Both the position numbers and the translations under genes were made by a program. A DNA stretch of 287 nt, taken from Escherichia coli (GTDB lineage: Bacteria > Pseudomonadota > Gammaproteobacteria > Enterobacterales > Enterobacteriaceae). A model generated the notes under the pieces. That model did no database searches, was not told where the DNA came from, and saw only the letters and a list, made by a program, of their open reading frames with translations. Positions 1-287 of this stretch are shown here, in pieces (position 1 is the stretch's first letter; each line of letters starts with the position of its first letter). The DNA lies in NCBI RefSeq assembly GCF_003334335.1, contig NZ_QOWQ01000225.1. The stretch is one strand, 5' to 3'.

Positions 1-287
1 GCCCCTTCAATGACTCTGTCCACCACATTTCCCCGGTGCGGAACACGCACTTCCCCCAGAGACTGACCACAGACGCATCCGTTCTGGCAGACGAACCTGA
101 AGTAACCCGGCAGCATCTGGTAGCTGGAGGTACCGTCATGAGAGTTGAGCAGAATAATTTCAGGGACATGTTCTCCGTTTATCTCTCCGGCCCGCCGCAG
201 ACGCAGCATGTGTTTTGTGTATCCCCGGCGGCCCGGGTCGCGCACACGGGTCTGGCAGGCGAAGAATGGCTGAAAGCCTTCCCGCTG
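1..287 (-). CDS. Internal fragment of a DUF932/UPF0380-family protein (YafZ/YfjQ-like, prophage/integrative-element associated); partial at both ends
   Basis: Seen in sequence: the complement frame with codons aligned to forward 285-287 is open for 95 codons (forward 3-287, plus 2 leftover bases at 1-2); the other two minus-strand frames each contain stops (TAA and TGA). Leucine codons are 5 CTG and 1 CTC, and TTA/CTA/TCA are absent. Translation: QREGFQPFFACQTRVRDPGRRGYTKHMLRLRRAGEINGEHVPEIILLNSHDGTSSYQMLPGYFRFVCQNGCVCGQSLGEVRVPHRGNVVDRVIEG. Established knowledge / recall: the segments EIILLNSHDG..SYQMLPGYFRFVCQNGCVCGQSLGEVRVPHRGNVVDRVIEG match my memory of UPF0380/DUF932 proteins (E. coli YafZ, YfjQ). 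No database search was run, so the family assignment is a recollection. No start or stop codon of the gene lies in the window. Confidence 0.7.

Follow-up and report, generated by a model that had tools for sequence, protein, structure and literature searches.

An internal fragment of an Escherichia coli island DUF932 gene, and a possible role for its family on newly entered DNA

The stretch of Escherichia coli DNA analysed here (the window; 287 nt) lies wholly inside a protein-coding gene. Six-frame reading shows that minus frame 1 has no stop codon and covers all 287 nt, as 95 codons that run from position 287 down to 3. Its translation starts with QREGFQPFF, contains the block ILLNSHDGTSSYQMLPGYFRFVCQNGCVCGQ and ends with VIEG; in full it reads QREGFQPFFACQTRVRDPGRRGYTKHMLRLRRAGEINGEHVPEIILLNSHDGTSSYQMLPGYFRFVCQNGCVCGQSLGEVRVPHRGNVVDRVIEG. 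Residues 2–95 of this fragment match positions 27–118 of the 227-position Pfam model for DUF932 (PF06067; i-E = 1.5e-29), and the full parent protein matches model positions 1–227 (E = 8.6e-52). The original prediction had singled out the 31-amino-acid block, which corresponds to residues 45–75 of the fragment translation and 101–131 of the full protein, as typical of UPF0380/DUF932. The Pfam result bears this out: the minus frame matches the family, and the plus strand has no match that could compete with it. Within the 287 nt there is no start codon, no stop codon and, as had been noted, no flanking gene. A search of both strands against Rfam gave only a chance-level best match (E 0.4; 14.8 bits, where the gathering score is 50), and hence no structured RNA.

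The window corresponds to positions 15001–15287 of a locus from strain E2865 (L001), where it falls inside a minus-strand coding sequence (14637–15455). This parent gene is 819 nt long and its product, WP_001234620.1, has 272 amino acids. Relative to the K-12 gene yfjQ, the window carries 15, 11 and 54 substitutions at sense codon positions 1, 2 and 3, respectively, and the changed codons comprise 42 synonymous and 17 non-synonymous differences. Against the paralogues, dN/dS (Nei–Gojobori) was 0.03–0.08 for the window part and 0.08–0.12 for the whole gene, values that, with dS near saturation, are safely read only as much less than 1. Together, the third-position bias, the low dN/dS and the stop codons found in the antisense frame of the paralogues argue that the minus strand is coding and under purifying selection. 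We regard it as virtually certain that the fragment represents codons 57–151 of an intact, selectively maintained chromosomal DUF932/UPF0380 gene of 272 codons, a paralogue of yfjQ and yafZ that belongs to CP4-type islands.

The opposite strand also holds an open frame. Plus frame 3 has no stops in the window and, in the parent locus, spans 229 codons without a stop, 192 of them from an ATG onwards, and it could be proposed that this frame is the real gene or that the two strands form a sense/antisense overlapping gene pair. We see next to no chance of either. The frame runs antisense to the DUF932 gene in codon register, and synonymous-codon shuffles of the sense gene gave an antisense frame of 175 ± 42 codons, with 13% of shuffles reaching 229; its length is thus accounted for by the amino acids and codons that the sense gene uses. 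The plus frame 3 translation had no Pfam match even at E ≤ 10 and none in NCBIfam; the homologous segment of the antisense frame is interrupted by one stop codon in yfjQ and by two in yafZ; and the substitutions cluster at sense third positions, which are antisense first positions. The shuffles, the missing Pfam and NCBIfam matches and the stops in yfjQ and yafZ rule out the plus-strand open reading frame as a gene. Plus frame 3 is a passive antisense by-product of the DUF932 gene (Table 1).

Table 1 Features of the 287-nt window, in window coordinates
Feature	Position	Strand	Remarks
Internal piece of the 272-codon DUF932 (UPF0380) gene	1..287	-	Pfam match and mapping to the parent coding sequence
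Codons 57-151	287 down to 3	-	Codon 152 (Ala) has its first two bases at positions 2-1
Most conserved core, residues 82-140	36..212	-	H82, R85, R87, E99, N104, H106, G108, G117, C123, N125, H140
Block ILLNSHDGTSSYQMLPGYFRFVCQNGCVCGQ	63..155	-	Family-conserved N104, H106, G108, G117, C123, N125, G126 (100-sequence alignment A1)
H82	210-212	-	
C123	87-89	-	Invariant
N125	81-83	-	Invariant
H140	36-38	-	Invariant
Open frame opposite DUF932	3..287	+	Plus frame 3; codon-aligned antisense; no gene

The parent product is 74.6% identical to YfjQ and 75.4% identical to YafZ of K-12, in agreement with the earlier description of the fragment as YafZ/YfjQ-like. Both K-12 proteins belong to the same Pfam family and are nearly equal in length (273 amino acids, against 272 for the window's protein). 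They are 97.8% identical to each other and only about 75% identical to the window's product, which places the window's gene in a separate paralogue subgroup. The gene is already known: it is annotated, near-ubiquitous in E. coli and a member of a long-recognised family (UPF0380, ‘F plasmid protein 32’). As a gene identification, the window itself adds nothing new, being a correct but ordinary piece of a gene that is annotated and present in most E. coli genomes.

Of 5,426 complete E. coli genomes searched with megablast, 4,455 (about 82%) match the window, at a median of 3 places and a maximum of 14, and 12,512 of the 12,519 places were chromosomal. The best match was at least 99% identical in 1,498 records, with many chromosomes at 100%, and among the matches listed every one lies inside a gene annotated ‘DUF932 domain-containing protein’. 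We read the island layout from the loci of E2865 and CFSAN061771, both of which match the window at 100% identity, rather than around the window itself. In E2865, the genes follow one another on the same strand in the order GTPase, Ag43, IrmA, DUF905, DUF932, antirestriction protein and RadC, and continue with DUF987 (YeeT), a YeeU-family antitoxin, the CbtA toxin and DUF5983. This block occupies the CP4-44 site, between cobU and tmaR/yeeA, in an IS-ridden island that has no intact integrase. CFSAN061771 carries the same block, in an island with the kps capsule cluster at one end and a tyrosine integrase adjoining tRNA-Phe at the other. The core of the block, all on one strand, consists of DUF905, DUF932, a KlcA-like antirestriction gene, a RadC-like gene, DUF987 and the CbeA/CbtA toxin–antitoxin pair. 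No oriT, relaxase or tra genes are annotated in the 30 kb around the chromosomal copies in E2865 and CFSAN061771.

The K-12 genes have comparable surroundings. yfjQ lies in CP4-57, with intA beside smpB/ssrA, and yafZ lies in CP4-6, with thrW and intF; these islands likewise have a GTPase gene upstream and antirestriction, RadC-like, DUF987 and toxin–antitoxin genes downstream. At the exact-match loci DUF932 sits directly between DUF905 and the antirestriction gene, whereas several genes intervene in K-12. The antirestriction-like, RadC-like and toxin–antitoxin neighbours that had been expected were seen in E2865, CFSAN061771, CP4-57 and CP4-6. The expectation of an integrase and a tRNA attachment site in the flanks held in part: an integrase with a tRNA or tmRNA boundary is present in CFSAN061771 (tRNA-Phe), K-12 CP4-57 and CP4-6, but the E2865 island has no intact integrase. 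The third K-12 island, CP4-44, has no DUF905, DUF932 and antirestriction segment, and its comparison with E2865 at the same chromosomal site indicates that K-12 lost the paralogue there. At that site in K-12 (L005), yeeR leads directly to yeeS (RadC-like), between which E2865 has IrmA, DUF905, DUF932 and the antirestriction gene.

Several smaller observations concern these islands. In K-12 CP4-57, the antirestriction-like and RadC-like genes downstream of yfjQ (L003 23920–24869) are now named lfgA and lfgB. LfgB is reported to be a protease that cleaves the antitoxin MqsA (PMC10846083), which means that at least one gene of the island block has a reported host-directed activity. One paper describes yfjQ in E. 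coli Nissle 1917 as up-regulated once the cryptic plasmids had been cured. In the E2865 locus, two similar GC-rich hairpins with 12–13-bp stems, each followed by TTT(C/T)ATTTAT, lie on the minus strand (L001 15533–15504 and 15842–15814). They are terminator-like and stand outside the window, just upstream of the DUF932 start and the DUF905 start; a terminator scan returned 11 terminator-like sites, against 4.0 ± 1.9 in shuffles.

DUF932 is a large family. An exhaustive HMMER search over 50%-identity representatives collected 5,341 members at E ≤ 1e-3, and when 100 aligned diverse members (alignment A1) were compared with Pfam, all matched DUF932 only, with no secondary Pfam link. Conservation was taken from A1. 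Five residues are invariant (P29, C123, N125, H140 and G230), and at least 90% conservation is reached by S41, Y44, T49, G60, Q68, H82, R85, R87, E99, N104, H106, G108, G117, G126, A183, A186, R208, D211, W217, Q224, E225, G231, R245, N257, L260 and W261. The query protein has every one of these residues, and those at positions 60–140 are encoded in the window. Because 19 of the 41 positions with at least 85% conservation fall in the window part, which makes up 35% of the protein length, the window represents the family's most conserved core. The protein scores far below the 110.7-bit cut-off of NCBIfam TIGR03299 (phage/plasmid-like, LGT-associated), at 17.9 bits (a weak match, E about 1e-3), and is therefore not a member of that subfamily; YgeB of the F plasmid scores 19.4 bits. 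TIGR03299 is a distant sister group in the DUF932 superfamily that is likewise found on phages, plasmids and transferred islands.

An AlphaFold2 model built from A1 (mean pLDDT 93.4; pTM 0.89) predicts an N-terminal α/β domain with strands (DSSP) at 61–68, 82–88, 96–104, 112–120, 125–128 and 136–138, followed by a C-terminal helical domain (144–271). The conserved core, residues 82–140, lies on β-strands of the predicted N-terminal domain, where most of the family's conserved polar positions (His, Arg, Glu, Asn and Cys) also lie. Searches of the PDB with the single sequence and with the 100-sequence profile found no relative, and Foldseek against the PDB returned nothing at E ≤ 1e-3. Against AFDB50, Foldseek gave 724 significant matches, of which the best 50 were all DUF932/DUF945 members; the matches include entries named ‘F plasmid protein 32-like’ and ‘Gene 32 protein’. 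As modelled, the DUF932 fold has no solved relative, and the structure alone assigns no function. PADLOC gave no match and no defence-system membership, PHROGs returned only families of unknown function, and the literature on DUF932 and its named members assigns no biochemical activity. The statement that the family has no established biochemical function therefore agrees with the structural, defence-system, phage-family and literature searches alike.

The family extends well beyond chromosomal islands. With tblastn, a homologue of about 62% identity was found in at least 5,000 plasmids, 89% of which are predicted to be conjugative. Some jumbo phages, such as GAP32, CBB and Yersinia fHe-Yen9, encode homologues of 37–39% identity, among small genes annotated without function. 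Metagenomic members occur on phage-like contigs with arrays of small same-strand genes, and the DUF932-bearing contigs also encode a DNA ligase, thymidylate synthase, PD-(D/E)XK and an SNF2 helicase. A 2025 preprint reports that, after phage exposure, a DUF932 gene on an integrated plasmid of Variovorax gained start-codon-loss and missense variants at high frequency, alongside variants in trbE. The view of DUF932 as a marker of CP4-type islands is right for the setting of the exact matches but too narrow for the family, which, judged by its homologues, is not specific to these islands.

One of the plasmid relatives is YgeB of F (also called YubP, and ‘protein 32’ or ‘gene 32’ of the leading region), which is 62% identical to the window's product over its full length (blastp) and has the same predicted fold. 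The F gene, annotated as DUF932 at 64438–65259, adjoins an SLT gene and lies near oriT and traM, in the order KlcA-like antirestriction, ssb, DUF905, ParB-like, psiB, hok, a 95-amino-acid ORF, DUF932, SLT and traM. In IncF plasmids, DUF932 occupies the end of the leading region that is nearest oriT. Upstream of it are psiB and hok; immediately next to it is the SLT transglycosylase gene, in opposite orientation, and then come oriT and traM. The leading region is the part of the plasmid that reaches the recipient first in conjugation. We identified ygeA and ygeB by mapping the lambda-Red deletion oligonucleotides of Couturier et al. 2023 (PMC9849209, supplement) onto F. The arms of the Δ-ygeA oligonucleotides bracket exactly the 95-amino-acid ORF, and the Δ-Frpo1-ygeA-ygeB deletion ends one base past the DUF932 stop codon; ygeA is therefore the 95-amino-acid ORF and ygeB the DUF932 gene (L009 14033–15260 for the pair).

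In that study, the single-stranded-DNA promoter Frpo1 drove early, transient expression of ygeA in transconjugants, with ygeB, itself untagged, just downstream (PMC9849209). Transconjugant frequency was 92.6% for the wild type, 25.2% for Δ-Frpo1, 32.7% for Δ-Frpo1-ygeAB, 14.5% for Δ-Frpo1-ygeA and 3.9% for Δ-ygeA, and no mutant lacking only ygeB could be obtained (PMC9849209). Loss of ygeA (3.9%) was thus more harmful than loss of Frpo1 with both genes (32.7%), which, together with the failure to delete ygeB alone, suggests an interplay between the two. The data hint that YgeA and YgeB form an antagonistic or mutually dependent pair, and the genetics of the ygeA–ygeB operon point to a real role of some kind in conjugation efficiency. 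In the description of DUF932 as an uncharacterised accessory protein, ‘uncharacterised’ is accurate biochemically but overlooks the positional and genetic data on this plasmid homologue.

A survey of leading regions by Samuel et al. 2024 (PMC11541004, Supplementary Table) places YubP, UPF0380, YafZ-like, PF06067 and YgeB together in family 3, which is enriched in the leading region. Family 3 ranks third in size in that survey, with 4,661 members, an FDR of about 0, a median ORF index of 1 from oriT and T-strand orientation, and DUF905 (YubL/YkfF) is its family 2 (PMC11541004). Three families are common to the F leading region and the chromosomal block, at identities of 62% for DUF932, 44–51% for DUF905 (YfjA/YubL) and 27–28% for the KlcA-like protein. 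The settings differ in other ways. The F copy adjoins oriT, has T-strand orientation and lies downstream of Frpo1 with ygeA before it, whereas the island copy has none of these nearby. When the F leading region, including Frpo1, was compared with the islands by blastn, only the DUF932 and DUF905 genes aligned, with no Frpo-like DNA, and tblastn found no YgeA homologue in chromosomal islands.

From these parallels we infer, at about even confidence, that DUF932 has an establishment role on newly entered DNA, by acting against a host barrier or in DNA processing. The protein would work for the mobile element as its DNA newly enters the cell, where it would either counter host defence or process the incoming DNA, and the conserved His, Arg, Glu, Asn and Cys residues of the N-terminal domain may form a catalytic, metal-binding or ligand-binding site. 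This proposal follows from the 62% identity to YgeB, whose gene is oriT-adjacent and downstream of Frpo1, and from the DUF905, DUF932 and KlcA-like families that the chromosomal block has in common with the F leading region. The whole explanation, in which a DUF932 island gene is joined to an establishment role, is the one towards which we lean, if only slightly. Position in the leading region offers only circumstantial support for an anti-defence role. Because the islands have no oriT, relaxase, Frpo-like DNA or YgeA, the early-entry logic of the plasmid copy may not apply to the island copy, and without YgeA the island copies cannot share in the YgeA/YgeB interplay. A more specific version, which we think rather unlikely as a whole, would make DUF932 an enzyme or metal-binding effector with an unsolved fold and a functional surface of H82, H106, C123, N125 and H140. 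Cells receiving conjugative DNA would express it as one of the earliest proteins from that DNA, and it would neutralise a host barrier or process the entering strand, with island copies acting in trans. If this were true, the island copies, which about 82% of E. coli genomes carry, would modulate the acceptance or mobilisation of foreign DNA.

Other functions have to be weighed against an establishment role. DUF932 could itself be a bona fide anti-restriction protein that inhibits restriction enzymes directly, as ArdA, KlcA and the Dar proteins do. Samuel et al. tag the family ‘Anti-restriction’ (PMC11541004), and a KlcA-like antirestriction gene is found both next to DUF932 in the islands and together with it in the F leading region. 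The tag of family 3 goes back to a single Foldseek match, by 1 of its 4,661 members, to Hdf of phage P1 (PMC11541004). A link between DUF932 and P1 Hdf was not reproduced here (hhalign probability 0.75%), and we detected no similarity in sequence or fold to known anti-restriction proteins (ArdA, KlcA/ArdB or Dar/Hdf). The KlcA/ArdB-type proteins share the island block, the plasmid leading region and a presumed early action after DNA entry with DUF932, a likeness that is one of functional analogy only. We judge direct inhibition of restriction enzymes to be quite improbable. Hardly more probable is that DUF932 binds DNA or serves the element as a regulator, in which case it would act on replication intermediates of the incoming single-stranded DNA or control transfer or element genes and would not be an anti-defence effector.

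The chromosomal copy might also do nothing at all, as residual cargo of a decayed element that is conserved through the youth of the islands or through spread by recombination. The islands are IS-ridden and partly pseudogenised, the E2865 copy is without an intact integrase and the gene is gone from K-12 CP4-44, all of which fits decay. Yet about 82% of complete E. coli genomes have intact ORFs of 272 or 273 codons, frequently more than one, and dN/dS is 0.03–0.12 between paralogues whose proteins have diverged by about 25%. The island protein keeps all family-invariant residues, and yfjQ is transcriptionally regulated in Nissle 1917, according to one paper. We consider a functionless chromosomal copy very doubtful, and an establishment role remains our preferred reading. 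DUF932 is among the most abundant uncharacterised families of plasmid leading regions. Knowledge of its activity would fill a gap in the understanding of how antibiotic-resistance plasmids establish themselves in new hosts, and would explain why chromosomal islands keep several copies.

A few database records of the family call for comment. Some database proteins join DUF932 to Pertactin/AIDA (473 amino acids), RadC, DUF905 or antirestriction domains; these fusion entries are most likely frameshift or gene-call artefacts that merge neighbouring island genes. The AFDB entry A0A2X2J265 from Shigella boydii shares 94% identity with the query; its name, ‘Nitrite extrusion protein 2’, is an evident misannotation. 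The PLSDB record CP061270.1, labelled a plasmid and 1.2 Mb in length, includes a copy at 100% identity and is probably part of a chromosome.
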